A stretch of 64,000 nt of DNA from Chloroflexia bacterium. Lineage in GTDB: Bacteria; Chloroflexota; Chloroflexia; QHBQ01; JADMIH01. A model generated the notes under the pieces. The model saw only the letters and a list, made by a program, of their open reading frames with translations. It searched no databases and was not told the DNA's origin. The position numbers were made by a program, and so were the translations under genes. Below are positions 27,959-64,000 of the stretch, piece after piece. The stretch is taken from NCBI GenBank assembly GCA_035274425.1, contig DATEOC010000017.1, forward strand, positions 5,456-69,455, read 5' to 3'. Every line of letters starts with the position of its first letter. The stretch's first letter is position 1.

Positions 27959-27992
27959 TTCGGACTTTGGACTTCGGACTTCGGACTTCGGT

Positions 27993-41572: not shown

Positions 41573-41878
41573 CGAAGCTGTCTCTTACCCACCGCGCCTG
41601 CACATCTACCCTGACCACATCCGACTTGGATCTATCGGCTAGAACGGCCAAATGTCGGCGAAAGATCGTAGTCGGCATGCGATATGGTAAGCCCTATCGA
41701 GGGAAATACCCGAATCTGTGGCAATTGTTGCCTCGTTTGTGTAGACGTGTCCACTCCGGAACCATCACAAGCAGGTTACATCTGTTGAGCACGCTGCGAG
41801 CATTGACAATTAGCGCGAACTAGTGTAACATCCACGCGGTTTACCTCGAAACTCGCCTCAAATAGCTTATTTGGATTT

Positions 41879-42106
41879 TTGACTATTGTGGGAACAACAA
41901 AAACTCGACAGGTGCTGGGTGCCCAGATGAAGCGCTATCGTAGATTATTGCGACTTTCCCAACAAGACCTGTCCAAACTGTCTGGCCTTAATCGAAGCTA
42001 TCTGGGAAGCGTTGAACGTGGTGAGCGTAATATTGGGATAGATAACCTAGAGGAAGTTGCTAAAGCACTAGGAATTGAAGCCTGGCAACTTCTGCGCGAG
42101 GAATGA
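41879..42106 (+). CDS. Controller (C) protein of a restriction-modification system (XRE-type HTH)
   Basis: RSYLGSVERGERNIGIDNLEEVAKALGIEAWQLL closely follows the C-protein pattern (R.YIS.VERG.RN.SL..L.KIA.AL). A TTGTgggaACAA palindrome lies within the first 50 nt, so the true start may be the downstream MKRYRR (41927). Confidence 0.6.
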   Translation: MTIVGTTKTRQVLGAQMKRYRRLLRLSQQDLSKLSGLNRSYLGSVERGERNIGIDNLEEVAKALGIEAWQLLREE

Positions 42107-42115
42107 TCCCCACAT

Positions 42116-43378: not shown

Positions 43379-43496
43379 GATTGCTCCTTATAAGTATCAG
43401 CTTCATATTGAGTTCATCATACCTAATCTGTGGGGACGAGTCAACAGTTATGCACATCAATCATAAGTACTGCGATCTACACAAGGAGGCTATTCG

Positions 43497-44543: not shown

Positions 44544-44775
44544 CAATAAGCTCAAAATAGAGATGAACCGTAGTGTTGACAGCAGCCCTTCAACGCATAA
44601 GGTAGGCATATCTTCTTAGTCACAAATTTATCACACCATATGCATAATCAACCCATCTCAACGATCACCAAGTAACATAGTAGGCAAATCCACAGGCACA
44701 AACCCCACTACTCATCTATCCCCAACCATCACCACTCTCTCGAATCTCGCCTTCGGCACAAATATAAAGTCTTCT

Positions 44776-48480: not shown

Positions 48481-48804
48481 GACAGACCTACTTCATTAGT
48501 CCAACAGCATGAATGTAACGTCGTTCTAATTACATACATATCACAGAACTAATGTTCTAGTCAAGAGGATTGGCTATTATTGGTGCAAATCTGCTGATAG
48601 ATATGCTATAATCCCTTTACGGTGACGTAATCTCAGTTTGATAAAATGACATATTAAGTGCGCGGTCAGGCACCATTTTTTATCACCAGTTTATCACGGC
48701 CTGCTTATAACAACCTATCCCGAACCATCACTAAGCATCACTGCTCACGCACAAATAGGTACGGAGGCATACAATCTAACGCCAACTAACACCTACTTGT
48801 GTAA

Positions 48805-48821
48805 TCCCGCCTCCGGCACCT
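48805..48821. repeat. attR-like direct repeat: 17-bp copy of the tRNA-Leu 3' end
   Basis: tcccgcctccggcacct is identical to 33444-33460. It sits within a 665-bp AT-rich non-coding region. Confidence 0.7.
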
Positions 48822-49146
48822 TCCCCGTCTCTATGTTCACTTCCACTTGCAGTGATATTCTAAAACTAGGCATAAAAAGAGATACAAAACGGACCTCTTT
48901 TTCTTTTCGCTCACAAATCGCTCATTTAACTACATATTACTCCACCTGACAGCATATCCTGTTACTTTATCCCGCAATTTAGCCAATTCTGGTGATGCGG
49001 CCTCTTACTTCATAGCTTAAGATAGAGCTTACTTCCACCTTTTCTGCGGTTCGTGTCTACTCCCTATTGACCAGAAGGTGCTGCTGAGTGGTATAATTGG
49101 TCGCATAATTTCTGCGGTCTAATAGTCTATTGCCGGAGGTTGGGCA

Positions 49147-52100
49147 GTGCGTACCCAAGATCGTCTAGCAACTACGTCATCCGCGTCGTCTACATTCCTA
49201 CACAACCTGGGCAAGCCTGCGACGGGGGAAGGGTCCGAGACCCACTCCTACGATCACCTCTCCCTTGCCCAACGGCGTATATGGGCATTGGACCAGTTGG
49301 TCCCAGGCAGCCCACAACATAACTCTTATATTGCCCTCCACCTCGCCGGACCGCTTGATCCACAAAGGCTGGAACGGTGCCTCAAAAAGGTCGGAGAACG
49401 GCATGATATTTTGCGGACTGCTTTCCCCCTGATTGATGGGCAGCCGGTCCAGATAGTAGCAGACCTCCCTTTCACTTTGCCCTTGCCCTTGTCCGACCTC
49501 AGTGGCCTGCCTGAGGCGGAGAAGGGCGACGCAGTAAAGCGTCTGGCGAGGGAAGAAGCGCAATACCCCTTCGACCTGGCGCAAGGCCGGTTGATACGGG
49601 CCGCACTGCTGCGCCTGGGCAACGATGAGCACCTACTGCTGCTGACGGCGCATGGGATTGTATGCGACGATCTCTCCATCAGGGTACTATGTGAGGAGTT
49701 GGCCGCGCTCTACGCCGCCTCGTCCACGGAAGAGCATTCGCCCCTCCCTCAGCCGCCGATGCAGTATGTCGACTATGCAGCTCGGCAGGAGGAGTGGCTG
49801 AAAGGGGAGGAGGCACAGGCCCAGATTGCATACTGGAAGGGGCAATTGGGCGGCAACCCTCCCGTGCTCGAATTACCTGCTGACCGGCCACGACCTCCGG
49901 TGCAGACGCATTACGGCGCTCGCCAACCTCTGCTCTTACCCTCCGAATTGGTGGAGGCGGTCAAGAGATTGAGTCAGCAGGAAGGGGTGTCGTTGTTCCT
50001 GACGATGCTATCGGCGTTCGAGACATTGCTCTATCGTTACACGGGACAGAGCGACATTGTGCTCGGTACGGAGACCGCTGGCCGCACCTCACCTGAGGGA
50101 GCAGGCTCTATAGGTCCACTTGCCAACATGCTGGCGTTGCGCACCAGCCTGGAAGGAGATCCCAGCTTCCGCGAGTTGCTGAAACGGGTGGGGCAGGTAG
50201 TTGCTGATGCGCACGCCAATGGAGACGTGCCTTTCGAGAAGCTGGTAGAAGAGTTACAGCCTGAGCGCGATCTGAGCCGCGCACCCTTCTTTGGGCTGAC
50301 CTTTGCTTTTCAAGACGCTCCGCCCCAACTGGAGTTTCCGGGTCTAATCGGCTCTATCCTCGACCTTGATCCGGGCATCGCGAAGTATGACCTCTCTCTG
50401 TCTATTGTAGACACGGAGGGTGACCTGAGTGGATGGGCCGAGTACAACAGTGATCTCTTTGACGCCTCGACCATCCGCAGGATGCTTGGGCATTTTCAGA
50501 TGCTGTTGGGAAGTATCGTGTCTGACCCTGGCCTTGTAATTTCAAAGCTGCCTATGCTGACCGATGCCGAGCGCCAGCAGTTGCTTGTCGGGTGGAACAG
50601 CACCGGCACGGGCTACCCACAGAGCGCGTGTATACACGAGTTGTTTGAGAGACAGGTGGAGAAGACGCCAGATGCGCCGGCTATCAGTTTCAAGGGTAAA
50701 CGTCTGACGTACCGGCAACTCAACAGCAAAGCTAACAAGCTGGCTCACCACCTGCGGGCGCTTGGGGTGGGTCCTGAGAAGCCGGTCGGGGTCTGCATGG
50801 AGCGCTCGCTCAACCTGGTGGCCGCTATGATGGGGGTGCTGAAAGCGGGCGGGGCCTATGTGCCCCTCGACCCAGCTTACCCGCACGACCGTCTCTCCTT
50901 TATGCTCGCGGACTCGCAGGCCCCAGTGTTGCTTACGCAGAGAGGGCTGTATGCGGAGCTTGCAACGCTGGGGGAGCATGGGGCGAAGGTGGTCTACCTC
51001 GATGATGGGTGGGAGGAGGCCATCGCGGGTGAGGAAGGGAATCCCGCGCCCATTTCCAACTCAGATAACCTGGCCTACATCCTCTATACCTCTGGCTCGA
51101 CCGGACGCCCAAAGGGAGTGAGCATCGAGCATAGGAGTGGCATTGCGCTCATAGAATGGGCGAAAGAGACGTATACGGAGGAAGAGCTTTCCAGGGTGTT
51201 GGCCTCGACCTCGATCTCGTTCGACCTCTCGGTGTTCGAGTTATTCGTCACATTGAGCGGTGGGGGTATGGTCGTCCTCGTAGAGAACGCGCTTCACCTG
51301 CCCACCCTCGGCCCTGAGGAACAAGTCACGCTGGTAAACACCGTCCCTTCGGCGATTGCCGAGCTACTGCGCACTGGAGGCGTGCCCACTTCGGTGCGCG
51401 TGGTCAACCTCGCCGGAGAGCCGTTGCAGCAAACGCTAGTCCAGCAGCTTTACGCACAGGTGCCGACCTGCCGGGTGTTCAACCTTTACGGCCCGACCGA
51501 GGACACCACTTACTCCACCTTCGCGCTCATGGAGAAGGGGAGTACGACGTTGCCGACCATCGGGCGGCCAATCGCCAACAGCCAGGTCTACCTGCTCGAC
51601 CGGCACGGAGAGCCGGTGCCGGTGGGCGTGCCAGGCGAGTTGTACATGGGCGGGGCAGGACTCGCCAGGGGCTACCTAAACCGCCCCGACCTCACTGCTG
51701 AGCGGTTCGTACCAAACCCCTTTTCTGATTTTGGATTTTGGATTTTGGATTTTGGAGTGGACCCTGATAATCCAAAATCCAAAATCCAAAATCCAAAATC
51801 AGGAGGGCGGCTGTACAGGACGGGCGACCTGGCGTCTTACCTGCCGGACGGCAACATCCGGTTTCATGGGCGGCTGGACCACCAGGTGAAACTCCGGGGG
51901 TTCCGCATCGAGCTTGGTGAGATCGAGGCGGTGCTGAGGCAGTACCCTGCCTTGCAGGATGTGGTGCTGATGGTGAGGGAAGATGTCGCGGGTGACAAGA
52001 GGTTGGTGGCTTACGTAGTCCCCAGCCCAGACTCCTCACTCGTCAGCTCTCAGCTGCGCGATTATCTGAGGGAGAGGCTGCCGGAATACATGGTCCCGTC

Positions 52101-55100
52101 GGCTTTTGTGGTGCTGGAGAAGCTCCCCCTCACACCAAATGGCAAGGTGGACCGCCGCTCTCTGCCCGCCCCTGAACTGGATAGGATGGAGGGCGGCGCT
52201 GAGTATGCCGCGCCGCGAAGCCCTGTAGAGGAAGCGCTTGCCGGTATCTGGGCCTCGGTGCTCGGCATCGAGCGTGTGGGGATACATGACAACTTCTTCG
52301 ACCTGGGAGGGCACTCGCTACTAGCGACTCAGGTGATCTCCAGGGTGCGGGAGGTGTTACATGCAGAGTTGCCGCTACGCCGCTTCTTCGAGACGCCTAC
52401 CGTGGCCGGTCTGGGTGAGAGTATCGAAGCAGCCCTTAAGGGAGGTTCAGTTGCTCCTGCCCCGTCCCTCCATCGCCTGCCCAGGAGAGAGAATTTACCC
52501 CTGTCGTTCGCGCAGCAGAGGCTCTGGTTCCTCGACCAGTGGCAGCCCGCTAGTGCCGCCTATAACATACCGGTTGTCATGCGCCTGGACGGGTCGCTCC
52601 AGGAGGAGGCGCTTCGGAAGAGCATCAACGCGATAGTCGAGAGGCATGAAGCTCTGCGCACAACCTTCTCGGTAGCAGGAGATCGGCCCGTGCAGGTGAT
52701 CGCTCCTGCCCTGGACGTTCCCCTGCCCGTTGTGGACCTGGGCAGTGTGCCCGACGAAAAGAGGGAAGCGGAGGCCCAACGGCTGGTCAAGGAGGAAGCA
52801 CGACGCCCGTTCGACCTGGCTCGGGGACCCTTGTTGCGTGCTCGCTTGCTGCGCCTGGACGAGGAGAGACACCAACTCGTGTTGGTCATGCACCACATCA
52901 TCTCGGATGGGTGGTCTATGGGCGTGCTGGCGCAGGAGCTGGCGGAGCTTTATAGGGCGTTCGCTGCCGGGGAGGCTCCGTCCCTTCGCGACCTGCCGGT
53001 ACAATATGCCGATTACACCATCTGGCAGCGAGAGTGGCTGCAAGGCGAGGCGCTCCAGGGCCAGCTCGATTATTGGAAGGGGCAACTGGCCGGCGCACCC
53101 GCCGCTCTCGAGATGCCAACAGATCGCCCTCGCCCCGCTATGCTCACTTATCGCGGGGCAAAGCAGCCATACCGTCTTACCGGAGACCTTGCCCAGGAGT
53201 TGAAGGGAATGGTCCGGCGCGAAGGGGTGACGATGTACATGGCGCTCCTTTCGGCTTTCACGGCGCTCCTCCACCGATACACGGGGCAGACCGACATCGT
53301 GGTAGGCTCGCCCATAGCCAACCGTACCAGGCCTGAGATCGAGGGGCTGATCGGCTTCTTCGTCAACATGCTGGCGTTACGGACCGACCTTTCAGGCGAC
53401 CCGACCTTCCGGGAGTTGCTGGGCCGGGTGCGAGAGGCGTCGCTGGGGGCGTATGGCCACCAGGACTTGCCGTTCGACAGGCTGGTGGAGGAGATGCAGC
53501 ATGAGCGCAATCTGGCCTACCATCCCATCTTCCAGGTAGCCTTCGTCCTCCAGAATGCGCCTACGGTAGCCCTGCAACTGCCAGGCTTGAGTATCGCCAA
53601 CCTTGAGGTTGATAAGGTTGACATGGGCACGGCGCGGTTTGACCTGATGTTTATCATCGAGGAAAGAGAGGAGGGGCTGTCGGTTGAGGTCGAATACAGC
53701 ACCGACCTGTTTGATGCTTCAACGATTACCCGCATGTTGGAGCACTACAGGGTCCTGTTGGAAGGAGTTGTCGCACAACCGGATCAGCGGGTATCAGAGC
53801 TGCCCCTGCTCACAGACGAGGAGCGGCAGCAGTTGCTCGTGGAGTGGAACAGCACGCATACCGACTACCCGCGAGACGAGTGCATTCACCCCCTCTTTGA
53901 GCGACAGGCGCAGCAGACGCCCGACGCAGTTGCGCTCATCTTCGGGGAAAAGCGCCTCACTTACCAGGAGTTGGACCAACGCGCTAACCGGTTAGCTCGC
54001 CACCTGAGAGATATGGGTATAGGCCGGGAAACGCTGGTAGGGGTCTGCATGGAGCGCTCTATAGAGATGGTGGTGGCGCTTTTGGGAGTGCTGAAAGCGG
54101 GTGGGGCGTATGTGCCTCTCGACCCCTCCTACCCGGAGGAGCGCCTGCGCTTCATGATGGAAGACACGCAAATTTCTGTGTTGTTGACTCAAGCGGTGCT
54201 GGCGGAGAAGCTCCCCGCTCATGTGGCGCGGGTAGTGCGCTTAGATACCGACTGGAGCGATATTGCCCGACAAAGCAGTGAGCCACTAGAGAGCGAGACG
54301 ACGGCAGAGAACCTGGCATACGTGATGTACACCTCCGGCTCCACCGGGCAGCCGAAGGGGATCGGCGTGCCGCACCGGGGAGTGGTCCGGCTGGTCAAGA
54401 ATACCAATTATGCTGACCTTTCCGACGACCAGGTATTACTCCAGTTCGCGCCTATCTCATTCGATGCGTCCACGCTCGAAATCTGGGGCAGCCTGCTCAA
54501 CGGAGCGCGCCTGGTGATTTACCCAACCACCGATGTGCCCCTCCTGGAAGAGCTGGCCCAGGTTATTGAAGAGTACGGCGTCACCACGCTATGGCTGACG
54601 GCGGGGCTGTTCCACCACATGGTAGAAGGCGGCCACCTGCGAGGGCTGACTAGCTTGCGCCAGCTGCTGGCTGGTGGGGACGTTCTATCGGCCCCTCACG
54701 TCAGGAAGGCTATCCAACAACTGGGAAGTGGCTGCACGCTGATAAACGGCTACGGCCCCACAGAGAACACAACCTTCACCTGCTGCTACCCTATGACCCA
54801 GTCGGCGCAGGTAGGCGACTCGGTGAGCATAGGCAGACCTATCGCCAACACGCAGGTCTATCTGCTCGACCGGCATTTGCAGCCCGTGCCGGTAGGGGTG
54901 GCAGGGGAGCTTTATATAGGTGGAGACGGCCTGGCGAGGGGTTACCTGAACCGCCCCAACCTCACGGCGGAGCGCTTCGTGCCCAACCCCTTCTTGAGTG
55001 CGGAATTCGGAGTGCGGAGTGCGGAATGGGACGAAGAGGCAAAAGAAGGTAGTAAGCAGAAGGCAGAAGGCAGTAATTACAATCCGCACTCCGCAGGTTC

Positions 55101-55914
55101 TTGGGCTATGCCCAATTCAGGCACTCCGCATTTAGAGGGGCGGCTCTACAGGACTGGCGACCTGGCTCGCTATCTGCCTGACGGGAGGATAGAGTTCCTG
55201 GGGCGCATAGACCAGCAGGTGAAGGTGCGTGGGTTCCGCATCGAGCTTGGCGAGATCGAGGCTGTGCTGGCCCAGCACCCGTCTGTGCAAGATGTCGTCG
55301 TCACGGCGCGAGAGCGGGACGATGCGCCCGGCGATAAGCGTCTGGTGGCCTATGTAGTGGGCGACTCTGGGCAAGGTCAGCCTTCCACACCCTCTGAGTT
55401 GCGCCAATACTTGAAAGAGAGGCTGCCGGAGTACATGGTCCCGTCGGCGTTCGTACAGATGGAGAAGCTGCCCCTCACGGCTAACGGCAAGGTGGACCGC
55501 CGTGCGCTCCCCGCGCCTGAGCTGGGGCGGGCAGAAGGAGACGCGGAGTACGTAGCGCCGCGCAATCCTGTAGAGGAGACGGTAGCGGCGATTTGGGTCT
55601 CGGTGCTGGGCATCGAGCGCGTGGGCGTTCACGACAGCTTCTTCGAGGTGGGCGGGCACTCGCTTGCAGCTACGCAGGTGGTATCGAGGGTGCGCGAGGC
55701 GTTACGTGTAGAGCTGCCGCTACGCCGCCTCTTCGAGACGCCTACCATAGAAGGCCTGGCAGAGGCAATCACCGAGATACAGAGCGATGTGTCAGCAGAG
55801 ATACCGGCCATAAGCAGGGCAAGTGCGGAAGAGTGGGGAGAGTTTCCGGACATCGAGGGGCTATCGGACGAGGAAGTGGATGCGCTCTTGCGAGAGATGA
55901 TGGCAGACAGGTAA
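49147..55914 (+). CDS. Non-ribosomal peptide synthetase, two modules: C(starter-type, variant active-site motif)-A-PCP-C-A-PCP, with a C-terminal docking tail
   Basis: C1 motif is LLLTAHGIVCDDLS (AHxxxDD in place of HHxxxDG). C2 is HHIISDGWS. A-domain cores appear twice: LKAGGAYVPLDP, YTSGSTGRPKG, NLYGPTE, GELYMGGAGLARGYL, YRTGDLA, GRLDHQVKLRGFRIELGEIE, NGKVDRR. PCP FFDLGGHSLLATQ appears twice. Approximate domain spans (nt): C1 49250-50570, A1 50630-52170, PCP1 52240-52440, C2 52500-53860, A2 53880-55520, PCP2 55590-55790. Confidence 0.9.
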   Translation: MRTQDRLATTSSASSTFLHNLGKPATGEGSETHSYDHLSLAQRRIWALDQLVPGSPQHNSYIALHLAGPLDPQRLERCLKKVGERHDILRTAFPLIDGQPVQIVADLPFTLPLPLSDLSGLPEAEKGDAVKRLAREEAQYPFDLAQGRLIRAALLRLGNDEHLLLLTAHGIVCDDLSIRVLCEELAALYAASSTEEHSPLPQPPMQYVDYAARQEEWLKGEEAQAQIAYWKGQLGGNPPVLELPADRPRPPVQTHYGARQPLLLPSELVEAVKRLSQQEGVSLFLTMLSAFETLLYRYTGQSDIVLGTETAGRTSPEGAGSIGPLANMLALRTSLEGDPSFRELLKRVGQVVADAHANGDVPFEKLVEELQPERDLSRAPFFGLTFAFQDAPPQLEFPGLIGSILDLDPGIAKYDLSLSIVDTEGDLSGWAEYNSDLFDASTIRRMLGHFQMLLGSIVSDPGLVISKLPMLTDAERQQLLVGWNSTGTGYPQSACIHELFERQVEKTPDAPAISFKGKRLTYRQLNSKANKLAHHLRALGVGPEKPVGVCMERSLNLVAAMMGVLKAGGAYVPLDPAYPHDRLSFMLADSQAPVLLTQRGLYAELATLGEHGAKVVYLDDGWEEAIAGEEGNPAPISNSDNLAYILYTSGSTGRPKGVSIEHRSGIALIEWAKETYTEEELSRVLASTSISFDLSVFELFVTLSGGGMVVLVENALHLPTLGPEEQVTLVNTVPSAIAELLRTGGVPTSVRVVNLAGEPLQQTLVQQLYAQVPTCRVFNLYGPTEDTTYSTFALMEKGSTTLPTIGRPIANSQVYLLDRHGEPVPVGVPGELYMGGAGLARGYLNRPDLTAERFVPNPFSDFGFWILDFGVDPDNPKSKIQNPKSGGRLYRTGDLASYLPDGNIRFHGRLDHQVKLRGFRIELGEIEAVLRQYPALQDVVLMVREDVAGDKRLVAYVVPSPDSSLVSSQLRDYLRERLPEYMVPSAFVVLEKLPLTPNGKVDRRSLPAPELDRMEGGAEYAAPRSPVEEALAGIWASVLGIERVGIHDNFFDLGGHSLLATQVISRVREVLHAELPLRRFFETPTVAGLGESIEAALKGGSVAPAPSLHRLPRRENLPLSFAQQRLWFLDQWQPASAAYNIPVVMRLDGSLQEEALRKSINAIVERHEALRTTFSVAGDRPVQVIAPALDVPLPVVDLGSVPDEKREAEAQRLVKEEARRPFDLARGPLLRARLLRLDEERHQLVLVMHHIISDGWSMGVLAQELAELYRAFAAGEAPSLRDLPVQYADYTIWQREWLQGEALQGQLDYWKGQLAGAPAALEMPTDRPRPAMLTYRGAKQPYRLTGDLAQELKGMVRREGVTMYMALLSAFTALLHRYTGQTDIVVGSPIANRTRPEIEGLIGFFVNMLALRTDLSGDPTFRELLGRVREASLGAYGHQDLPFDRLVEEMQHERNLAYHPIFQVAFVLQNAPTVALQLPGLSIANLEVDKVDMGTARFDLMFIIEEREEGLSVEVEYSTDLFDASTITRMLEHYRVLLEGVVAQPDQRVSELPLLTDEERQQLLVEWNSTHTDYPRDECIHPLFERQAQQTPDAVALIFGEKRLTYQELDQRANRLARHLRDMGIGRETLVGVCMERSIEMVVALLGVLKAGGAYVPLDPSYPEERLRFMMEDTQISVLLTQAVLAEKLPAHVARVVRLDTDWSDIARQSSEPLESETTAENLAYVMYTSGSTGQPKGIGVPHRGVVRLVKNTNYADLSDDQVLLQFAPISFDASTLEIWGSLLNGARLVIYPTTDVPLLEELAQVIEEYGVTTLWLTAGLFHHMVEGGHLRGLTSLRQLLAGGDVLSAPHVRKAIQQLGSGCTLINGYGPTENTTFTCCYPMTQSAQVGDSVSIGRPIANTQVYLLDRHLQPVPVGVAGELYIGGDGLARGYLNRPNLTAERFVPNPFLSAEFGVRSAEWDEEAKEGSKQKAEGSNYNPHSAGSWAMPNSGTPHLEGRLYRTGDLARYLPDGRIEFLGRIDQQVKVRGFRIELGEIEAVLAQHPSVQDVVVTARERDDAPGDKRLVAYVVGDSGQGQPSTPSELRQYLKERLPEYMVPSAFVQMEKLPLTANGKVDRRALPAPELGRAEGDAEYVAPRNPVEETVAAIWVSVLGIERVGVHDSFFEVGGHSLAATQVVSRVREALRVELPLRRLFETPTIEGLAEAITEIQSDVSAEIPAISRASAEEWGEFPDIEGLSDEEVDALLREMMADR
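51725..51802. repeat. 78-bp perfect inverted repeat of GGATTTT heptamers (31-bp arms, 16-nt spacer) inserted in frame into the A6-A7 loop of NRPS adenylation domain 1
   Basis: ctgattttggattttggattttggattttgg / agtggaccctgataat / ccaaaatccaaaatccaaaatccaaaatcag. It encodes SDFGFWILDFGVDPDNPKSKIQNPKS between FVPNPF and GGRLYRTGDL. 78 = 26 codons. Confidence 0.9.
54996..55131. repeat. In-frame heptamer-repeat/partial-palindrome insertion (GAGTGCG..., GAAGGCA x3, ...CCGCACTCCGCA) in the A6-A7 loop of adenylation domain 2
   Basis: gagtgcggaattcggagtgcggagtgcggaat ... gaaggcagaaggcagtaat ... aatccgcactccgcagg ... cactccgca. It encodes LSAEFGVRSAEWDEEAKEGSKQKAEGSNYNPHSAGSWAMPNSGTPHLE. Confidence 0.85.
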
Positions 55915-55924
55915 GGTTGATGCA

Positions 55925-58900
55925 ATGAGCACTATGGACAGACCACTGGCAGACCTCTCACCCAAGGAGAAGCGCGCCCTCCTCGCGGAGCAGGTCAGGC
56001 AGAGAGCTGCGCAGACTGACGCTCCCAGGCATTTCCCCCTGTCGTTTGCCCAGATGCGTCTGTGGTTCCTCGACCGCATGGAAGGGGGCAGCCCCTTTTA
56101 CAACGTCTCGTTTGCCACGCGCCTGACGGGGCCGCTCCATCTGGAGGCGTTGAGGCGTAGCATCAGCGAGATCGTGCGTCGCCATGACACATTGCGGAGC
56201 AGCTTCGTGACGGCGGACGAGGATCCTGTGCAGGTTGCCGCGTCGTACGCGGATGTGCCCCTGCCGGTCCAGGATGTGCGACATCTACCTGCGCAGGAGC
56301 GCGAACGGGAGGCCCACTCGCTCCTAACCGAGGAAGCGCAGCGCCCCTTCGACCTGGCGCAAGCTCCCCTGGTACGCACGTTGATAATACGGCTGGATGA
56401 GGAAGAGCACCTCCTCCTGGTGACGATGCACCACATCATCGCGGATGGGTGGTCGTTCCATCTTTTCCACGGTGAATTGCAGACTTTGTATTCGGCCTTC
56501 GTCGCCGGCAATCCATCTCCACTACCTGAATTGCCTATCCAGTACGGCGATTACGCTGTCTGGCAGCGAAAGCGGCTGCAAGGCGAGATTCTACAAGCTC
56601 AGCTTGAATACTGGATGAGGCAGATCAGAGGCGCGCCGCCCTTGCTGGAACTGCCCGCTGACCGGCCACGCCCAGCCAGGCAGACCTACAGGGGAGCCAC
56701 CCAATCTATCACTTTGCCGCCGGAACTGGTCCACGAACTGGAGCACCTGAGCAAGCAGGAGGGTGTCACCTTCTTCATGACGTTGTTGGCGGCATTCGAT
56801 GCACTGATCTACCGCTATACAGGCCAGACCGACGTCGTGGTGGGCGCGCCGATAGCGGGGCGCACGCGCAGGGAGGTAGAAGGGTTAATAGGTTTCTTCG
56901 CCAACACCCTACTCTTTAGGGCCGACCTGGGAGGTGAGCCTACTTTCCGCGAGCTTTTGGCCAGGGTCAAGGAAGTGGCGTTGGGCGCATACGACCACCA
57001 GGACCTGCAGTTCGAGCGGCTTGTAGAAGAAGCTCAACCTGAGCGCAACCTGAGCTACAATCCGCTCTTCCAGGTGATGTTTGGACTGGAGAACACGCCC
57101 CGCGAAATTCGGGAGCAATCGGGCCTGGTGTTCGACACTGCCCTCTTCGAAAGCGGCACATCCATCGTTGATCTGTCTCTCACGATCATCGACACTCCAC
57201 AGGGTACCCAGGCGCAGGCTGAATACAGTACAGATTTGTTCGATAGAGACACGATTACCAGGTTGCTGGGGCACTACCGCACGCTGTTGGAGGCAGTGGC
57301 CCGCGACCCCCAGACTCCGGTCTCCCAACTGCCGATCCTGACCGAGAGTGAGCGGCGCACACTCTTGGTCGAATGGAACGATACCCGTAATGACTACCCA
57401 CGAGAGTTATGCGTCCACCAGTTATTCGCGGCGCAGGCGAACCGCACGCCCGACAAGGTTGCCCTGGTGTATGGCAAGCAGAAGCTGACGTACCGGGAAC
57501 TGAGTGAGCGCGCAAACAAGCTGGCCCATTACCTGCGGACGCTTGGGGTAGGCCCTGACACCCTGGTGGGCATATGCGTGGAGCGCTCGATAGAGATGGT
57601 GGTAGGTGTGCTCGGAGTGCTGAAGGCAGGTGGGGCATACGTGCCACTAGACCCTACATACCCGAAGGAGCGGCTGGCCTACATGGTAGAGGATTCGGGG
57701 GCCGGAGTGCTGCTCTCTCAAGAGGAGTTAGCCGGGCTTGCTCAAGACCTGGCCGGACAGCGCGCCCACAGGGTGCTCCTCGACCGCGATTGGAAGGGGA
57801 TAGAGCCCCAGCCCGCAGGCGATCCGGCCCCAGAGGGTGGCCCCGACAACCTGGCCTACGTTATTTATACCTCCGGCTCTACAGGCAGGCCCAAGGGGGT
57901 GCAGGTCCCCCACCGTGCCCTAACTAACCACTTATGGTCCATGAAAGCTAAGCCTGGGCTGGCGGAGGATGATGTGCTGTTGGCCGTCACTTCCCTCTCG
58001 TTCGATATAGCCGCCTTAGAGTTGTACCTGCCCCTCGTCACCGGTGCTACGCTGGTGCTGGCTAGCAAGGATATCGCCTCCGATGGCATTCTCCTGGGAA
58101 GGGAAATAGCCGAGAGGGGAGCGACTGTAATGCAGGGCACGCCCGCGTCGTGGCGGCTGCTGTTCATAGCCGATGCCTGGCCTGCCCGGGCAACAGGTAC
58201 CCTGAAGGCGCTGTGCGGTGGTGAGGCGCTCCCTGTTTCGTTGGCTTATGACCTGTCGTGCAGGGCAGTCGCCGTGTGGAACATGTACGGCCCTACCGAA
58301 ACGTGCATCTGGTCTACCATCCACAAGGTGGAGATAGGGGAACAGAAAGGTCCCAACTCCTCCGTAACCAGTATAGGCAGGCCCATTGCCAACACGCAGG
58401 TGTACCTTCTGGATCGCCACATGCAGCCTGTGCCAATAGGGGTGGCAGGGGAGCTTTATATAGGCGGTGATGGCCTGGCGCGAGGCTACCTGGGCAGGCC
58501 AGACCTGACTGCCGAGCGTTTCGTACCCAACCCCTTTTCGAATGCGGAATTCGGAGTGCGGAATGCGGAATCAGCTTCTAATCCGTACTCCGCAGGTTCT
58601 TGGGCTACGCCCAATTCAGGCACTCCGCACTCAGGAGAGAGGCTGTACAAGACGGGGGACCTGGCTCGCTATCTGCCTGACGGAAGGATAGAGTTCCTGG
58701 GGCGGATAGACCAGCAGGTGAAGGTGCGTGGGTTCCGCATCGAGCTTGGCGAGATTGAGGCTGTGCTGGGCCAGCACCCTGCTCTGCGTGAAGCGGTCGT
58801 AAGCGTGCGGGGTAGAGAGAGTGACGACAAACGGTTGGTAGCTTACGTTGTGGCGCACCCCGGTCAGGCTCCATCTTCAACAGAGCTGCGCAACCTCCTG

Positions 58901-59401
58901 CGAGCCAGGCTGCCAGAATATATGATCCCCTCGACATTCGTCCTCTTGGATAAGATGCCGCTCACACCCAACGGTAAGGTAGACCGCAAGGCGCTCCCTG
59001 AGCCTGAAGGCTGCGAGGAGTGCAGGGGCGACTTGTATGTCGTGCCACGCACGCCCCTGGAAGCGCAACTGGCAGCAGTGTGGGCGGGCGTTCTGAAAAA
59101 GGAGCGCTTCGGCGTAACCGATAACTTCTTCGACCTCGGCGGCCATTCGCTCTCTGCTATGCGGATGGTGTCCAGGGTGCGTACCGCGCTCAGCATTGAC
59201 GTAGCTTTGCGCACTCTGTTTGAAGCTCCAACAATAGAGGGCCTGGCCCTTGCGATAATGCGGGCGCAAGGAGGTGCCGGGACAACGTTAGTTGCGCCGC
59301 GTATAGTCCATCTCATTCCTGAGCCGGATGAAGAAGAAGCACCCCTGAACATAGGCGAGCTTTCCGCCGAGGAGATAGATTCGCTCCTTAAGACTTTATA
59401 A
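55925..59401 (+). CDS. Non-ribosomal peptide synthetase, one module: C-A-PCP with N- and C-terminal docking regions
   Basis: HHIIADGWS. A-domain cores LKAGGAYVPLDP, YTSGSTGRPKG, NMYGPTE, GELYIGGDGLARGYL, YKTGDLA, NGKVDRK. PCP FFDLGGHSLSAMR. Confidence 0.9.
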   Translation: MSTMDRPLADLSPKEKRALLAEQVRQRAAQTDAPRHFPLSFAQMRLWFLDRMEGGSPFYNVSFATRLTGPLHLEALRRSISEIVRRHDTLRSSFVTADEDPVQVAASYADVPLPVQDVRHLPAQEREREAHSLLTEEAQRPFDLAQAPLVRTLIIRLDEEEHLLLVTMHHIIADGWSFHLFHGELQTLYSAFVAGNPSPLPELPIQYGDYAVWQRKRLQGEILQAQLEYWMRQIRGAPPLLELPADRPRPARQTYRGATQSITLPPELVHELEHLSKQEGVTFFMTLLAAFDALIYRYTGQTDVVVGAPIAGRTRREVEGLIGFFANTLLFRADLGGEPTFRELLARVKEVALGAYDHQDLQFERLVEEAQPERNLSYNPLFQVMFGLENTPREIREQSGLVFDTALFESGTSIVDLSLTIIDTPQGTQAQAEYSTDLFDRDTITRLLGHYRTLLEAVARDPQTPVSQLPILTESERRTLLVEWNDTRNDYPRELCVHQLFAAQANRTPDKVALVYGKQKLTYRELSERANKLAHYLRTLGVGPDTLVGICVERSIEMVVGVLGVLKAGGAYVPLDPTYPKERLAYMVEDSGAGVLLSQEELAGLAQDLAGQRAHRVLLDRDWKGIEPQPAGDPAPEGGPDNLAYVIYTSGSTGRPKGVQVPHRALTNHLWSMKAKPGLAEDDVLLAVTSLSFDIAALELYLPLVTGATLVLASKDIASDGILLGREIAERGATVMQGTPASWRLLFIADAWPARATGTLKALCGGEALPVSLAYDLSCRAVAVWNMYGPTETCIWSTIHKVEIGEQKGPNSSVTSIGRPIANTQVYLLDRHMQPVPIGVAGELYIGGDGLARGYLGRPDLTAERFVPNPFSNAEFGVRNAESASNPYSAGSWATPNSGTPHSGERLYKTGDLARYLPDGRIEFLGRIDQQVKVRGFRIELGEIEAVLGQHPALREAVVSVRGRESDDKRLVAYVVAHPGQAPSSTELRNLLRARLPEYMIPSTFVLLDKMPLTPNGKVDRKALPEPEGCEECRGDLYVVPRTPLEAQLAAVWAGVLKKERFGVTDNFFDLGGHSLSAMRMVSRVRTALSIDVALRTLFEAPTIEGLALAIMRAQGGAGTTLVAPRIVHLIPEPDEEEAPLNIGELSAEEIDSLLKTL
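58541..58630. repeat. In-frame GAATGCG/GAGTGCG heptamer insertion with partial reverse-complement (CCGTACTCCGCA...CACTCCGCAC) in the A6-A7 loop of adenylation domain 3; 3' half near-identical to the module-2 insertion
   Basis: aatgcggaattcggagtgcggaatgcggaat...aatccgtactccgcaggttcttgggctacgcccaattcaggcactccgcac. It encodes SNAEFGVRNAESASNPYSAGSWATPNSGTPHS. Confidence 0.85.
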
Positions 59402-59462
59402 CTGGATGATAGACGATAATCACGCATCACTTATTAACTGCATAAGGTGAGTAACACAACAT

Positions 59463-62400
59463 ATGAACAGAGATACTAGCCCTACGCCAACGGCAGAACT
59501 TACCCTTGAGCAGAAGCGCGCCCTTCTCGCGCAACAGCTAGCCAAGCGGCAGAAGCCTCGTGCGTTCTCTACATCGTTTGCTCAGCAACGGCTCTGGCTC
59601 GTTGACCAACTTGAGCCTGGCAATGCATTCTACAACGTACCTATCGCCACCCGCCTGACCGGGCCACTCGACGTTGCAACACTGGAGCGGAGCCTCGCTG
59701 AGGTAGTGCGCCGCCACGATGACCTGCGCACTACCTTCTCGGTTGTGGAAGGCCAGCCTATGCAGGTTGTCGCCTCGATGGTCAAGGTGCCTTTACAGGG
59801 CGTGGACCTGCGACATCTGCCTGAGGAAGCGCGGGAGGCAGAGGCCAAACGCATCACCGAAGAGGAGGCGCGCAGGCCGTTTGACCTAGTGCAGGGTCCA
59901 CTTATACGAACCATCCTCCTGCGAACGGGTGAGGAGGAGCACCTGCTGATGCTGACGATGCACCATATCGTCTCTGACGGTTGGTCCATGCAGATTTTCT
60001 ACGAGGAATTGGAGGCGCTCTACAACGCCTTCACGGAGGGGAAGCCATCGCCGCTCCCTGAGTTGCCGGTACAGTACGCCGATTACGCGGTGTGGCAGCG
60101 AAACTGGCTACAGGGCGACGTTCTGCAAGCGCAGCTTGACTACTGGAAGAAGCAGCTAGAAGGCGCGCCTCCCCTGCTGGAACTGCCGACTGACCGCCCA
60201 CGCCCTCCCGCACAGACCTTCAAGGGCGACCACGAGTCTATAGTGCTGCCTACGAGCCTGGCACAACAGTTGGAAGCGCTGGGGAGAAGAGAGGGGGCCA
60301 CCCTCTTCATGACCTTACTCGCGGCGTTCGGGACGCTGCTCCACCGCTACACAGGGCAGGCAGACATCGTCATAGGCTCTCCCATCGCGGGCCGCACCCA
60401 CGAGGAGCTTGAGGGACTGATCGGATTCTTCGTCAATACGCTGGTGTTGCGATCAAACTTTGCGGGGGACCCTACCTTCCGTGAATTGCTCAAGAGGGTG
60501 AGGGAGACCGCGTTGGGGGCATATGCTCACCAGGATGTACCTTTCGAGAAGCTGGTCGAGGAGCTGCAACCTGGGCGCGACATGAGCCGGACCCCTTTCT
60601 TCCAGGTGATGTTCGTGCTACAGAACGCGCCCATCCCTGACCCCAAATTGAAGGGCCTTCAGGCCAAGACATTCATTGTGGACAGCGGCACGGCCAAGTT
60701 CGACCTGACGCTGGATATGCAGAACGAAGAGGATGGGCTGCACGGGGACCTGGAATACAACACTGACCTGTACGACGCATCAACCATCAGGCGTATGCTG
60801 GGACACTTCCAAACGCTCCTTGAGGGTATCGTCTCCGATCCTACACTTAGGGTATCGGAGCTACCATTGCTTAGCGGTGACGAACGGCAGCAGTTGCTGG
60901 TGGAGTGGAACAGCACATACAGGGAGTACCCGCACGATAGGTGCATACACCAGTTGTTCGAGGAGCAGGTAGAGAAGACACCTGACGCCGTAGCTGTAGT
61001 GTTCGGTGACGAGCAGTTGACTTGCGGGGAGTTGAACAGTAGAGCGAACAAGCTGGCACGACATCTGCGAAAATTGGGAGTAGGGCCGGAGGTGCTGGTA
61101 GGGCTGTGCGTGGAGCGCTCCATTGAGATGGTGGTAGGGCTGTTGGGGATACTGAAGGCAGGGGGGGCATACGTTCCCCTGGACCCTTCCTACCCCAAAG
61201 ATAGGCTTGCGCACATACTGGAAGATAGTCGCGCTCCCGTGCTAGTCACGCAAAGTACGCTCAGCCTGGCGAGCGAACTATCTCATAAGGTGCAAACTGT
61301 CTATCTTGACAGGGACTGGACAGCTATCGAGGGTGAGAGTGGTGAGAACCTCGACCAGCAAGGGATAAGCGTAACGCCGGACAACATGGCGTATGCCATC
61401 TACACCTCCGGCTCTACCGGCCTGCCGAAGGGGGTGCTTGGCCTGCATCGCGGGGCCATCAATCGCTTCCGGTGGATGTGGGAGACCTACCCTTTCACAG
61501 AGGGCGAGGTCTGCTGCCAGAAGACCGCCCTGAGCTTCGTCGACTCGATCTGGGAGATATTCGGCCCATTGCTACAGAGCGTTTCGCTAGCTATCATCCC
61601 TGACGAGGTGTTGAAGGACCCACAGCTGTTCGTGGGTGCGCTCGCAAAAGCGGGAGTTACGCGTCTTGTGCTTGTGCCCTCTCTTCTTCGGGTGCTATTG
61701 GAAACTGATCACGATCTCGATGCCAAACTGCCCAGGTTGAAGGTGTGGGCGACCAGCGGCGAGGCGCTTTCGACGGATCTGGCGCACCGCTTCAAGATGA
61801 TGCTCCCTGGCCGTACCCTGCTGAATATCTACGGCTCGTCGGAAGTGTCCGCCGACGTGACCTGGCACGACCTGAGCCGAGAGAGCGCCGACCTCACACG
61901 AGTACCCATTGGCCGCCCCATCGCCAATACCCAGGTGTACCTGCTTGACAGGCAGATGCAGCCCGTGCCTATAGGCGTGCCCGGTGAGGTGTACGTGGGC
62001 GGGGCCAACATGGCGCGAGGCTATGTTGGGAAGCCGGAGTTGACAGCCGAACGGTTCGTGCCCAACCCCTTTGGGAGTGCGGAATTCGGAGTGCGGAGTG
62101 CGGAGTTAGACGAAGGACGAAGGACGAAAGACGAATATTCAGAAGGCAGAGGGCAGAAGGCAGAAGGCAGTAATCATACTCCGCACTCCACACTCCACAC
62201 TCCGCACTTGGAAGGGCGTCTGTACAAGATGGGCGACCTTGCCCGCTACCTCCCAGATGGCAGCATAGAGTACCTGGGTCGGGCCGATTACCAGACGAAG
62301 ATACATGGCTTCCGCATCGAACCGGACGAGATCGCGGCCACTCTCGCGCAGCATGATGCCGTCCGAGAGTGCGTGGTTATCGTCCGAGAGGACGAGCCTG

Positions 62401-62963
62401 GCGACAGACGCCTGGTGGCTTACACCGTTTTAGGCGAGCCGGGGAGCGCGACGGTGGGGGACCTGCGGCTCTTCTTGAGGCAGAAGCTGCCCGACTACAT
62501 GGTCCCTTCGTCATTTGTGTTCCTAGACGCATTGCCGCTGACGCCGAGCGGTAAGGTAGACCGCCGGGCGCTCCCCGCGCCTGGGCAGGAGGCGGTTGAA
62601 GAGGATAGCGGCTACGTGGCGCCACGCGACGCAATAGAGGAAGTGCTGGCCGATATGTGGGCCGAGATGCTGCGGCTGGAGCGGGTAGGCGTCTACAGCA
62701 ACTTCTTCGACCTGCGCGGGCACTCCCTCCTGGCGATGCAGCTTGTCTCCCGGGTCCGCGATGCGTTCCGGGTGGAGCTTCCGCTGCGCAAGATGTTCGA
62801 GGACCCTACAGTCGCGGGCATGGCGGCTGCGCTGGTCGCGCAGGAGCCGAAGCCGGGGCGCACCCTGAAGGCCGCCCAGATTCTGCAACAACTCGAAGGT
62901 ATGTCTGAGGCCGAGGTCCTCAGCACGCTCCGGGAGCAGCAAGCGAAGCGAGGTGCTCCTTGA
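59463..62963 (+). CDS. Non-ribosomal peptide synthetase, one module: C-A-PCP
   Basis: HHIVSDGWS. A-domain cores LKAGGAYVPLDP, YTSGSTGLPKG, NIYGSSE, GEVYVGGANMARGYV, YKMGDLA, GRADYQTKIHGFRIEPDEI, SGKVDRR. PCP FFDLRGHSLLAMQ (Arg in place of the usual Gly before the HS). Confidence 0.9.
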   Translation: MNRDTSPTPTAELTLEQKRALLAQQLAKRQKPRAFSTSFAQQRLWLVDQLEPGNAFYNVPIATRLTGPLDVATLERSLAEVVRRHDDLRTTFSVVEGQPMQVVASMVKVPLQGVDLRHLPEEAREAEAKRITEEEARRPFDLVQGPLIRTILLRTGEEEHLLMLTMHHIVSDGWSMQIFYEELEALYNAFTEGKPSPLPELPVQYADYAVWQRNWLQGDVLQAQLDYWKKQLEGAPPLLELPTDRPRPPAQTFKGDHESIVLPTSLAQQLEALGRREGATLFMTLLAAFGTLLHRYTGQADIVIGSPIAGRTHEELEGLIGFFVNTLVLRSNFAGDPTFRELLKRVRETALGAYAHQDVPFEKLVEELQPGRDMSRTPFFQVMFVLQNAPIPDPKLKGLQAKTFIVDSGTAKFDLTLDMQNEEDGLHGDLEYNTDLYDASTIRRMLGHFQTLLEGIVSDPTLRVSELPLLSGDERQQLLVEWNSTYREYPHDRCIHQLFEEQVEKTPDAVAVVFGDEQLTCGELNSRANKLARHLRKLGVGPEVLVGLCVERSIEMVVGLLGILKAGGAYVPLDPSYPKDRLAHILEDSRAPVLVTQSTLSLASELSHKVQTVYLDRDWTAIEGESGENLDQQGISVTPDNMAYAIYTSGSTGLPKGVLGLHRGAINRFRWMWETYPFTEGEVCCQKTALSFVDSIWEIFGPLLQSVSLAIIPDEVLKDPQLFVGALAKAGVTRLVLVPSLLRVLLETDHDLDAKLPRLKVWATSGEALSTDLAHRFKMMLPGRTLLNIYGSSEVSADVTWHDLSRESADLTRVPIGRPIANTQVYLLDRQMQPVPIGVPGEVYVGGANMARGYVGKPELTAERFVPNPFGSAEFGVRSAELDEGRRTKDEYSEGRGQKAEGSNHTPHSTLHTPHLEGRLYKMGDLARYLPDGSIEYLGRADYQTKIHGFRIEPDEIAATLAQHDAVRECVVIVREDEPGDRRLVAYTVLGEPGSATVGDLRLFLRQKLPDYMVPSSFVFLDALPLTPSGKVDRRALPAPGQEAVEEDSGYVAPRDAIEEVLADMWAEMLRLERVGVYSNFFDLRGHSLLAMQLVSRVRDAFRVELPLRKMFEDPTVAGMAAALVAQEPKPGRTLKAAQILQQLEGMSEAEVLSTLREQQAKRGAP
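62075..62208. repeat. In-frame composite heptamer insertion (CGGAGTG x3, GACGAAG x3, GAAGGCA x4, then reverse-complement CCGCACT/CCACACT units) in the A6-A7 loop of adenylation domain 4
   Basis: gagtgcggaattcggagtgcggagtgcggagttagacgaaggacgaaggacgaaagacgaat...gaaggcagagggcagaaggcagaaggcag...actccgcactccacactccacactccgcact. It encodes GSAEFGVRSAELDEGRRTKDEYSEGRGQKAEGSNHTPHSTLHTPHLE. Confidence 0.85.
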
Positions 62964-64000
62964 TGGATGACGTTGCCAACGCTGCCGAACTGGCTGCCAG
63001 GAAGCGCGAGTTGCTCGCGCTTCTCCTGGACGAGGATGAGGAGGATACTGCGGAGCCATATACCATTGTCAGGCAAGAGAGCCGCACCGACCTGCCCCTG
63101 TCGTTTGCCCAGCAGAGGCTCTGGTTTCTGGACCAGCTTGAGCCGGGCAACCCCTTCTACACCATCCCGGTTGCCATGCGCCTGTCGGGTCCTCTCGACG
63201 TAGACGCATTGGAGCGGAGCCTCACCGAGATTGTGCGCCGCCACGAGGTCTTCCGCACAACGTTCCCATCAAGGGACGGCCAGCCTGTGCAGATGATTGC
63301 CCCCTCCGCATCATTGTCTGTGCCCCTTGTGGACCTTCACGACCTGCCTGCCCATGAGCGAGAGAGCAAGGTCCAACGGATGGCTGAAGAGGAAGCGCGC
63401 AGGCCGTTCGACCTCGCTAAGGGTCCCATCGTGCGGGCGCACCTTTTTCGCCTGGACGAACGTGAGCACGTGCTGCTCCTCACGATGCACCACATAATGG
63501 CCGATGGCTGGTCTTACGGCGTGCTGCTTGGGGAGCTTGGGCCGCTCTACAACGCCTTCACGCGTGGTCAGCAATCGCCGCTCCCTGATCTGCCCGTGCA
63601 GTATGCCGATTACGCGGTGTGGCAGCGAGGCTGGCTGCAAGGTGAGACGCTGGACAACCAGCTTGACTATTGGAAAGGCCAATTGATGGGTGCTCCTCCT
63701 CTGCTGGAGCTGCCCACTGACCGCCCACGCCCTCCCGCACAGACGTACAGGGGCGCTCACGAGTCTGTGGTCCTGCCCAAGAGCCTGACGCGACAACTGG
63801 AAGGGTTAGGGAGGCAAGAAGGGGCCACCCTATTTATGACCTTGCTTGCGGCGTTCGGAGCGCTGCTCCACCGCTACACGGGGCAGAGCGACATAGTGAT
63901 AGGCTCTCCCATCGCGGGGCGCACCAGGCCCGAAGTCGAAGGGTTGATCGGGCTGTTCGCCAACACGCTCGTCATGAGATTGGACGTGGGCGGGAATCCT
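62963..64000 (+). CDS. Fourth NRPS gene (5' part only; runs off the window): N-terminal docking region + condensation domain
   Basis: The ATG at 62963 overlaps the upstream TGA (TGATGG). My own translation: MDDVANAAELAARKRELLALLLDEDEEDTAEPYTIVRQESRTDLPLSFAQQRLWFLDQLEPGNPFYTIPVAMRL...HHIMADGWS.... It is not in the ORF track because there is no stop in the window. Confidence 0.85.
   Translation, partial: MDDVANAAELAARKRELLALLLDEDEEDTAEPYTIVRQESRTDLPLSFAQQRLWFLDQLEPGNPFYTIPVAMRLSGPLDVDALERSLTEIVRRHEVFRTTFPSRDGQPVQMIAPSASLSVPLVDLHDLPAHERESKVQRMAEEEARRPFDLAKGPIVRAHLFRLDEREHVLLLTMHHIMADGWSYGVLLGELGPLYNAFTRGQQSPLPDLPVQYADYAVWQRGWLQGETLDNQLDYWKGQLMGAPPLLELPTDRPRPPAQTYRGAHESVVLPKSLTRQLEGLGRQEGATLFMTLLAAFGALLHRYTGQSDIVIGSPIAGRTRPEVEGLIGLFANTLVMRLDVGGNP

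Follow-up and report, generated by a model that had tools for sequence, protein, structure and literature searches.

What does a condensation (C) domain do when it stands at the very start of a nonribosomal peptide synthetase (NRPS) and carries an abnormal active-site motif? The question is raised by a 64,000-nucleotide stretch of a Chloroflexia metagenome-assembled genome (MAG), contig DATEOC010000017.1, which was analysed as a whole and is referred to here as the window. Its last part, positions 49147-64000, holds four open reading frames (ORFs; g1 to g4), all on the plus strand and collinear in the ORF list, which an earlier note on this DNA had described as an uncharacterised multi-gene NRPS cluster whose first domain is a C domain with an abnormal His motif and which lies beside an integrated island. 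Our analysis supports that description. In the reading that we favor, to which we assign a probability of roughly 60%, the leading domain (C1) would be a dead relic and the cluster would make a peptide Ala-Val-Gly-beta-Ala-X that is released reductively as an aldehyde or alcohol and possibly closes to a cyclic imine.

A complete five-module assembly line

Four collinear genes encode a complete NRPS of five modules, which ends in a thioester reductase. The Pfam families Condensation, AMP-binding, AMP-binding_C and PP-binding matched in order in all four genes, as is characteristic of type I NRPSs, with E-values of 1e-90 to 1e-221. Within the window this gives C, adenylation (A) and carrier (T) domains in the order C-A-T-C-A-T, C-A-T, C-A-T and C..., and Pfam confirmed the earlier observation that no epimerization (E), methyltransferase (MT) or thioesterase (TE) domain lies within the window. 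The fourth gene, which runs past the window end, could be read entire on a metagenome contig of the European Nucleotide Archive (ENA; contig L001) that carries the exact g3 protein and shows 0 mismatches to the window over the 14.5 kb of overlap. Because g4 ends in C-A-T-R, where R is the reductase domain, there are exactly five modules and release is reductive; thus the collinear 2+1+1 layout given by the earlier note stands, and its "at least 5" modules become five. The g1 protein has an exact match in a Chloroflexia MAG, and the cluster proteins are deposited as HKP51511-HKP51521 on a Chloroflexia MAG contig of 103.6 kb.

The reading frame of the NRPS is unbroken over ~21 kb, and the motifs expected of working A and T domains were found. 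The equivalent of Lys517 is present in all five A domains of the alignment, and a carrier motif follows every one of them; the Ser of the GGHS motif was located in T1 and T2, and T4 reads LRGHS where LGGHS is expected, with the Ser retained. The R domain of g4, encoded on the same contig beyond the window end, has the features of a release domain, with a score of 352 bits against TIGR01746 (cut-off 213) and a match to Pfam NAD_binding_4. Its nearest solved structure is the R domain of MxaA (PDB 4U7W; 355 bits), from the polyketide synthase (PKS)/NRPS hybrid that makes myxalamid, and alignment of the two showed that the cofactor and catalytic motifs are shared, TGASGFLGA and YSQSK (Y-x-x-x-K) being intact in g4. 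MxaA carries out a four-electron reduction, the product of the myxalamid pathway being an alcohol.

Genes 3' of g4 encode MbtH, a Methyltransf_2 O-methyltransferase, a type II thioesterase, a HetI-like phosphopantetheinyl transferase (PPTase), a DUF6875 protein (on the minus strand), a P450 and a major facilitator superfamily (MFS) transporter. Counted from 49147 to the end of the MFS gene (L038 12655), the cluster is ~28.4 kb long. The genes beyond the MFS gene (DUF4760, DUF4153, an extracytoplasmic function (ECF) sigma factor, MoxR, DUF58 and a transglutaminase) are unrelated. A TE domain and tailoring genes had been expected downstream by the earlier note: tailoring genes (P450 and O-methyltransferase) are indeed there, and the assembly line itself ends in R, the thioesterase being a separate type II protein.

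At the start of the cluster, a ribosome-binding site (GGAGG, 49135-49139) precedes the GTG start codon of g1 by 7 nt, and in-frame TAA TAG codons at 49120-49125 close the frame 24 nt upstream of the GTG; an Rfam search over 48300-49400 matched no family. The g1 protein ends in ...GLSDEEVDALLREMMADR, and g2 begins with MSTMDRPLADLSPKEKRALLAEQ, its N-terminal helix LSPKEKRALLAEQ preceding C3. Proteins g2, g3 and g4 all open with helices of the L(S/T)xxxKRALLAxQ type, opposite acidic LSxEE-type tails of the preceding proteins, and the terminal strings quoted in the earlier note do occur, with similar g2/g3 and g3/g4 junctions. Since the first 60 aa of g1 to g4 gave no match to TubC_N (PF18563) even at E<=10, "docking" is a pattern-based label here. 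Unlike g2 to g4, g1 lacks the L(S/T)xxxKRALLAxQ helix at its N-terminus, which argues against an upstream loading module.

The degenerate leading condensation domain

The string AHGIVCDD occupies g1 residues 168-175, as the earlier note had seen; the register AHxxxDD that it gave to the motif did not hold. The C1 region EHLLLLTAHGIVCDDLSIRVL aligns gap-free with RHQLVLVMHHIISDGWSMGVL of C2, and MAFFT gave the same register when C1 was aligned with C2-C5 and with 120 homologs from databases, so that the motif reads HGxxxDD. In this register the first His is retained, the second His is replaced by Gly (G170), the Gly by Asp (D175) and the next Trp (W176) by Leu. The form HHxxxD[GAED] is found in 114 of the 120 best homologs listed, and among the other listed C domains that lack the second His we saw no clear pattern: one with an HQ motif (P0044) belongs to a fragmented cluster and stands behind an A-T protein, and another with an HQ motif (contig L014) is N-terminal. 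None of these 120 matches exceeds 872 aa, so full-length orthologs of g1 could not be drawn from this set. The second His of HHxxxDG is regarded as essential (Rausch 2007; PMC1894796).

The degeneracy of C1 extends beyond the His motif. C1 scored 320 bits against Pfam Condensation, over positions 7-456 of 456, compared with 385-431 bits for C2-C5. Across 122 relatives, 153 alignment columns show conservation of at least 85%; C1 departs from the consensus at 34 of them, the family mean being 8.9 (sd 4.3) and the maximum 25. The altered conserved positions, which touch core motifs C5 and C6, include Y58, H170, W176, W213, R215, T282, F325, Y356, H358, Q359 and Q383.

Comparison with solved structures nevertheless classes C1 as a diverged C domain of the elongation type (LCL-like), at least as distant from starter domains as any other LCL domain. 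C1 scored highest against Txo2 (322 bits), Txo1 (312), DhbF (245) and TycC6 (221), as against 71 bits for the starter domain CDA-C1 (PDB 4JN3), 59 bits for that of RzmA (PDB 7C1H) and 152 bits for the glycopeptide X-domain. The control, C2, is a genuine elongation domain and gave the same ranking, with Txo2 on top (420 bits) and the starter domains at 72 and 73 bits, which places C1 in the elongation lineage. Identity between C1 and C2-C5 is 47-54%; C2-C5 and their orthologs in a related cluster are 53-76% identical among themselves. Of three marks of a starter C domain, C1 has the N-terminal position and lacks both the clade and the catalytic motif. Among the observations that the earlier note had named as telling against its own proposal were grouping of C1 with ordinary elongation-type domains and a loading module upstream; the former was made and the latter was not found.

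The fold of C1 is predicted to be intact, as its AlphaFold2 model is a confident one, with a predicted local distance difference test (pLDDT) score of 88, a predicted template modelling (pTM) score of 0.85 and disorder restricted to residues 1-32. A Foldseek search with this model placed Txo2 1st, the glycopeptide X-domain 12th (TM 0.78-0.79) and CDA-C1 48th.

Among the matches listed, the nearest relative of C1 (P0002; 62% identity) lies in another Chloroflexia MAG, on contig DASQDU010000097.1 (L027). The ORF begins MVRTQDRISTPSSA..., matching VRTQDRLATTSSA... of g1, its motif is AHEIVFDEWS with Glu for the second His, and genes for an ArsR regulator and a P-type ATPase lie upstream. Its A1 pocket matches DLFNNALTY through position 331, the contig stopping short of Lys517. 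Many departures from the family consensus are common to the two orthologs and both motifs lack the second His; this loss therefore predates the split of the two lineages, and the domain has been kept since. The start of the leader is also common to both, (M)VRTQDR(L/I)(A/S)T(T/P)SSA, the remainder being different (window 49147-49257; L027 4837-4930).

Sequence divergence gave a weak hint that C1 may have evolved faster than its neighbor. The orthologous pairs are 62.5% identical for C1 and 80.2% for A1, compared with 61.8% and 68.2% for C5 and A5 against a related cluster, which corresponds to C:A divergence ratios of 1.9 and 1.2, respectively. This ratio is a weak proxy used in place of the ratio of nonsynonymous to synonymous substitution rates (dN/dS), because, at 62% identity to the sole C1 ortholog, synonymous sites have reached saturation. 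Scanning species-representative genomes and JGI metagenomes for close relatives of C1 returned only sequences of 28-52% identity, mostly canonical C domains. A related JGI cluster (Ga0633461_0000032; L035/L040) was considered as a source of a third ortholog and rejected, since its first visible C domain carries MHHIIADG and is orthologous to C3 (62%), not to C1 (48%).

Predicted product and competing explanations

Specificity codes of the A domains were extracted by alignment to GrsA-PheA numbering, which reproduced the reference code DAWTIAAICK. By published code tables, DLFNNALTYK of A1 would specify Ala and DALWLGGTFK of A2 would specify Val, neither assignment having been retrieved by literature text searches. 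DILQLGMIWK of A3 has been reported as a Gly code (PMC12283262). In the code of A4, Asp has moved from position 235 to 236. This arrangement is of the beta-alanine-activating type. Independent support for that type comes from cluster Ga0633461_0000032, which has the identical code VDWVASIADK in the orthologous module together with a second code, IDWVVSLADK, and in which an aspartate 1-decarboxylase gene (panD) adjoins the MFS gene; no panD gene adjoins the cluster in the window, whose last gene is the MFS gene. Small residues at 239 and 301 together with Cys331 suggest that the substrate of A5 may be large and hydrophobic or aromatic, which would suit the P450 and O-methyltransferase. The absence of E domains leads us to expect a peptide composed of L residues throughout.

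In the mechanism that we propose, C1 would have neither condensation nor N-acylation activity. Its inactivity is something we infer, and Pfam found no formylation (F) or MT domain. In solved modules the C domain and the A-core together make up a stable platform (PMC10510592), which suggests that C1 may be kept as the structural partner of A1 in a C-A platform. Free Ala on T1 would be the true starter, to which Val, Gly, a beta-alanine-type residue and a fifth residue X, probably large and hydrophobic or aromatic, would be added in turn. Reductive release by the R domain would then yield a pentapeptide with an aldehyde at its C-terminus, or with an alcohol if a second reduction follows. Because the N-terminal amine would be free, the aldehyde could cyclize spontaneously, giving a macrocyclic imine of the kind seen in nostocyclopeptide and koranimine. 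A side chain would probably be modified by the P450 and O-methyltransferase.

Several points weigh against this reading. Some C domains stay active after mutation of the second His, and heterocyclization (Cy) domains lack it (PMC10510592), so its loss does not prove that C1 is inactive. C1 has stayed full length, with a fold predicted to be sound, in two lineages of only ~62% identity, which shows continued selection for some role, and that role might go beyond scaffolding. The product is deduced here from the genes; the specificities other than Gly are putative assignments from code tables (for A4 also from the panD context), and the A5 code has no assigned substrate. An aldehyde or an alcohol, linear or cyclic, would each be compatible with the sequence, and the nearest solved R domain, that of MxaA, comes from a pathway whose product is an alcohol. 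A trans-acting donor encoded elsewhere is conceivable, the genome being a MAG, although nothing points to one.

If C1 were instead a working starter domain, it would transfer a fatty acyl group from acyl-CoA or an acyl-acyl carrier protein (ACP) onto Ala-S-T1, and the product would be a lipopeptide aldehyde or alcohol. In favor of this, C1 opens the first gene, has no donor carrier in cis, keeps D174, is conserved and predicted to be folded, and has lost a His that some C domains can do without (PMC10510592). Yet it scores no better against starter domains than C2 does and is as close to the cluster's own LCL-type domains as given above, and, besides the second His, 33 further conserved residues are altered, including W176, W213 and core motifs C5/C6. 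No fatty-acyl ligase (FAAL), ACP or other NRPS module was found in the 49 kb upstream or in ~9 kb downstream of the last gene of the cluster, and no acyltransferase gene lies near it, an absence that is not decisive because starter domains often draw acyl-CoA from primary metabolism. We consider lipo-initiation unlikely, and the step that the earlier note took from an N-terminal C domain to a lipopeptide is unsupported, C1 being of elongation type, without its catalytic His and without acyl-supply genes nearby. Its elongation type would fit another active role, in which a stand-alone A-T or carrier protein feeds C1 in trans with an aminoacyl, peptidyl or aryl donor to give a product of at least 6 units; the incompleteness of the MAG and the 8.1 kb of unseen DNA before the first visible NRPS gene of the related JGI cluster leave room for such a protein. 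This we regard as very unlikely, given that g1 lacks the N-terminal helix carried by g2, g3 and g4, that both orthologs stand behind unrelated genes (tRNA-Leu and the island here, ArsR and the P-type ATPase in DASQDU010000097.1) and that the catalytic His is gone in both.

The remaining alternatives accept that C1 is inactive. It could be a C-derived module with a job of its own, either an N-terminal counterpart of the X-domain or of siderophore interface domains that recruits the P450, the O-methyltransferase or the DUF6875 protein, or a shield for the N-terminal amine before imine macrocyclization; on this view, the nostocyclopeptide synthetase would exemplify the same recurrent pairing of a dead leading C domain and a terminal R domain. 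The X-domain is known as an LCL derivative without catalytic activity whose role is to recruit P450s (PMC1894796; PMC10510592), the C1 model superposes on it, the three candidate partners are conserved in related clusters, and C1 has remained full length in two diverged lineages with common substitutions. X-domains, however, belong to the last module before the TE and C1 is N-terminal, its sequence is far nearer to ordinary C domains, the residue that module 1 is predicted to load, Ala, gives a P450 or O-methyltransferase few sites to act on, and the interaction itself is conjectural; we therefore hold this role to be quite unlikely. Equally improbable in our view is a decaying or silent cluster, in which the degenerate C1 and the repeat-derived inserts of 84-147 nt in all five A domains, absent from related clusters, would mark loss of function: the NRPS frame is uninterrupted, every insert preserves the frame and falls within a single surface loop, intact motifs were seen wherever A, T and R domains were checked (T4 reading LRGHS but keeping its Ser), and the accessory genes are intact as well.

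Known systems place the reading of C1 as a dead relic in context. The closest is the nostocyclopeptide synthetase NcpA/NcpB of Nostoc sp. ATCC 53789 and N. edaphicum CCNP1411, which is likewise a multi-gene collinear NRPS that opens with a C domain. The C domain of NcpA1, the first module, carries a degenerate HQIVGDL and has been judged inactive (PMC7551626); the likeness to C1 is one of motif and position, the second His being degenerate in both (HQIVGDL and HGIVCDD). As here, the last module ends in a thioester reductase, which in Ncp has a Thr-Tyr-Lys triad and GxxGxxG (PMC7551626), and the aldehyde released by this terminal R domain of NcpB self-assembles with the free N-terminal amine to a cyclic imine (PMC7551626, citing Becker 2004 and Kopp 2006), a step that is only proposed for the window's cluster. 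Ncp has 7 modules in 2 genes and an E domain, compared with 5 modules in 4 genes and no E domain here, a docking domain before the NcpA C domain that g1 is without, 4-methylproline genes and no beta-Ala, and it is cyanobacterial rather than from Chloroflexia. In logic the cluster is thus nostocyclopeptide-like, as an NRPS that ends in R and opens with a degenerate C domain; the differences are in length, phylum, residues and tailoring genes.

Koranimine (kor) and lugdunin (lug) are also made by R-terminated NRPSs, whose aldehydes self-cyclize to an imine or thiazolidine, and the kor cluster shares with the window's cluster a PPTase and a type II thioesterase (PMC9640594). Both come from Firmicutes and are without the set of MbtH, O-methyltransferase and P450, koranimine is a heptapeptide whose synthesis involves skipping and re-using modules, and in the portion of the source consulted no degenerate N-terminal C domain is documented for either (PMC9640594). 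Starter C domains (CDA-C1, 4JN3; RzmA-Cs, 7C1H; SrfAA-C1) resemble C1 in lying at the extreme N-terminus before the first A domain; unlike C1, they form a separate sequence clade and keep the catalytic His. The glycopeptide X-domain (Tcp12, PDB 4TX2/4TX3) shares with C1 an LCL origin, a corrupted His motif and a P450 gene in the cluster, and is non-catalytic and retained for a non-enzymatic role; unlike C1, it occupies the last module before the TE, a position that C1 does not have, and is a proven P450 recruiter.

Hairpin inserts, genomic surroundings and outlook

In all five A domains, one surface loop, between 'FVPNPF' and 'RLY(R/K)(T/M)GD', is enlarged by an in-frame insert of 84-147 nt. 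The inserts are strong, largely self-complementary hairpins with predicted folding energies of -38 to -63 kcal/mol, whose arms consist of inverted heptamer repeats, (GATTTTG)n/(CAAAATC)n in A1, where the stem is near-perfect over 33 bp, and (GGAGTGC)n/(GCACTCC)n in A2-A5. The encoded peptides are of the form FGFWILDFG...NPKSKIQNPKS or SAEFGVRSAE...HTPHSALRTPH. In the orthologous A domains of L040 the same loop is 6 aa long, and in 43 other A domains examined it is 5-19 aa long with no hairpin. The presence of two different repeat families in the same loop suggests repeated insertion, or tolerance of insertion, at that one site, and the hairpins might act at the level of mRNA or co-translational folding. 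Perfect heptamer tandem arrays of 3-7 copies also pepper the rest of the window (8046-8076, 10509-10534, 10745-10799, 27959-27991, 29213-29244, 31387-31412 and 31662-31776); at least one lies within a long ORF, the array (ATTTTGG)n at 29213-29244 being inside the ORF at 28574-30946 on the minus strand. These arrays resemble the short tandemly repeated repetitive (STRR) sequences of cyanobacteria and are unexpected in a Chloroflexia MAG.

Table 1. Features of the NRPS cluster and the adjoining island (window coordinates unless a contig is named)
Feature	Position	Strand	Description	Basis
NRPS gene 1 (g1)	49147-55914	+	2255 aa; HKP51511.1; C1 (degenerate)-A1-T1-C2-A2-T2	ORF list, Pfam
C1	49258-50586	+	g1 aa 38-480; full-length, degenerate condensation domain; preceded by 37-aa leader	
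C1 His-motif variant	49651-49671	+	H169-G170-I-V-C-D174-D175 over HHxxxDG	MAFFT
A1	50644-52167	+	Code DLFNNALTYK; hairpin insert 51724-51807	
T1 carrier	52234-52425 (approximate bounds)	+	GGHS phosphopantetheine Ser at g1 aa 1057	Pfam PP-binding, 2 stretches in g1
C2	52489-53838	+	Canonical elongation type, MHHIISDGWS	Pfam, aa 1115-1564
A2	53896-55491	+	Code DALWLGGTFK; hairpin insert 54994-55140	
T2 carrier	55579-55770	+	C-terminal tail ...GLSDEEVDALLREMMADR after T2, putative docking helix	Pfam
NRPS gene 2 (g2)	55925-59401	+	1158 aa; C3-A3-T3	ORF list, Pfam
A3	in g2	+	Code DILQLGMIWK; hairpin insert 58538-58639	
NRPS gene 3 (g3)	59463-62963	+	1166 aa; C4-A4-T4	ORF list, Pfam
A4	in g3	+	Code VDWVASIADK; hairpin insert 62073-62216	
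NRPS gene 4 (g4), 5' part	62963-64000, runs past window end	+	C5...	Pfam
g4 entire	ENA contig L001 13501-18156		1551 aa; C5-A5-T5-R	
A5	in g4		Code DVALIGTICK; hairpin insert L001 16114-16236	
Leader/promoter region	48822-49146	+	AT-rich, 42.8% GC	
attR	48805-48821	.	17-bp direct repeat TCCCGCCTCCGGCACCT of tRNA-Leu 3' end (33444-33460)	Exact repeat search
tRNA-Leu(taa)	33375-33459		Island integration site	
Tyrosine integrase	33547-34689	-	Phage_integrase	
Prim-pol protein	36911-39724	-	937 aa	
DNA methylase	42116-43378	-		
DnaE-like Pol III alpha	44776-48480	-	Full length; HKP51510.1	

The island upstream of the cluster spans ~15.4 kb (33444-48821) and has the marks of a tRNA-targeting element, an integrase beside a tRNA gene and a repeat at the far border. 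The earlier note had placed the cluster ~300 bp past attR in DNA of host-like GC content; we found attR 325 bp upstream of the g1 GTG and GC contents of 60.3% for the NRPS, 51.2% for the island and 57.9% for the host DNA upstream, in agreement with that view. That the island carries its own replicative polymerase is unusual. A class I S-adenosylmethionine (SAM) methyltransferase gene (31864-32646) lies just upstream of tRNA-Gly and tRNA-Leu and, before the insertion, would have been ~1.1 kb upstream of NRPS gene 1. Farther upstream, 11-8044 and 10983-13517 encode secreted or surface proteins of very large size, in which SLH, lamin-tail, PLD-like, CBM_4_9 and PPC domains occur; these genes contain internal tandem repeats of 33-108 nt and belong to the cell envelope, unrelated to the NRPS.

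Related Chloroflexia clusters differ from one another by whole modules. Ga0633461_0000032 (L040 1-24470 = L035) has the arrangement Gly + bAla-like / bAla / X-R, with two beta-Ala-type A domains, and contains panD and a YbaK-like tRNA_edit gene, both missing from the cluster in the window. A second contig of the window's metagenome (L036 311-2406) opens with panD-DUF6875-tRNA_edit, and DUF6875 is present in every version of the cluster seen.

Few nonribosomal peptides are known from the class Chloroflexia, and a complete cluster such as this one is a reasonable target for heterologous expression. The reading of C1 as a dead relic shifts what should be expected from such an experiment to an unacylated Ala-Val-Gly-beta-Ala-X aldehyde, alcohol or cyclic imine, with no lipopeptide series. 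More generally, a C domain in first position does not equal lipo-initiation, and here the register of the motif and the subtype of the domain point elsewhere. Should dead leading C domains and terminal reductases turn out to occur together repeatedly, their combination would give a useful sequence rule for predicting free N-termini and imine macrocycles.

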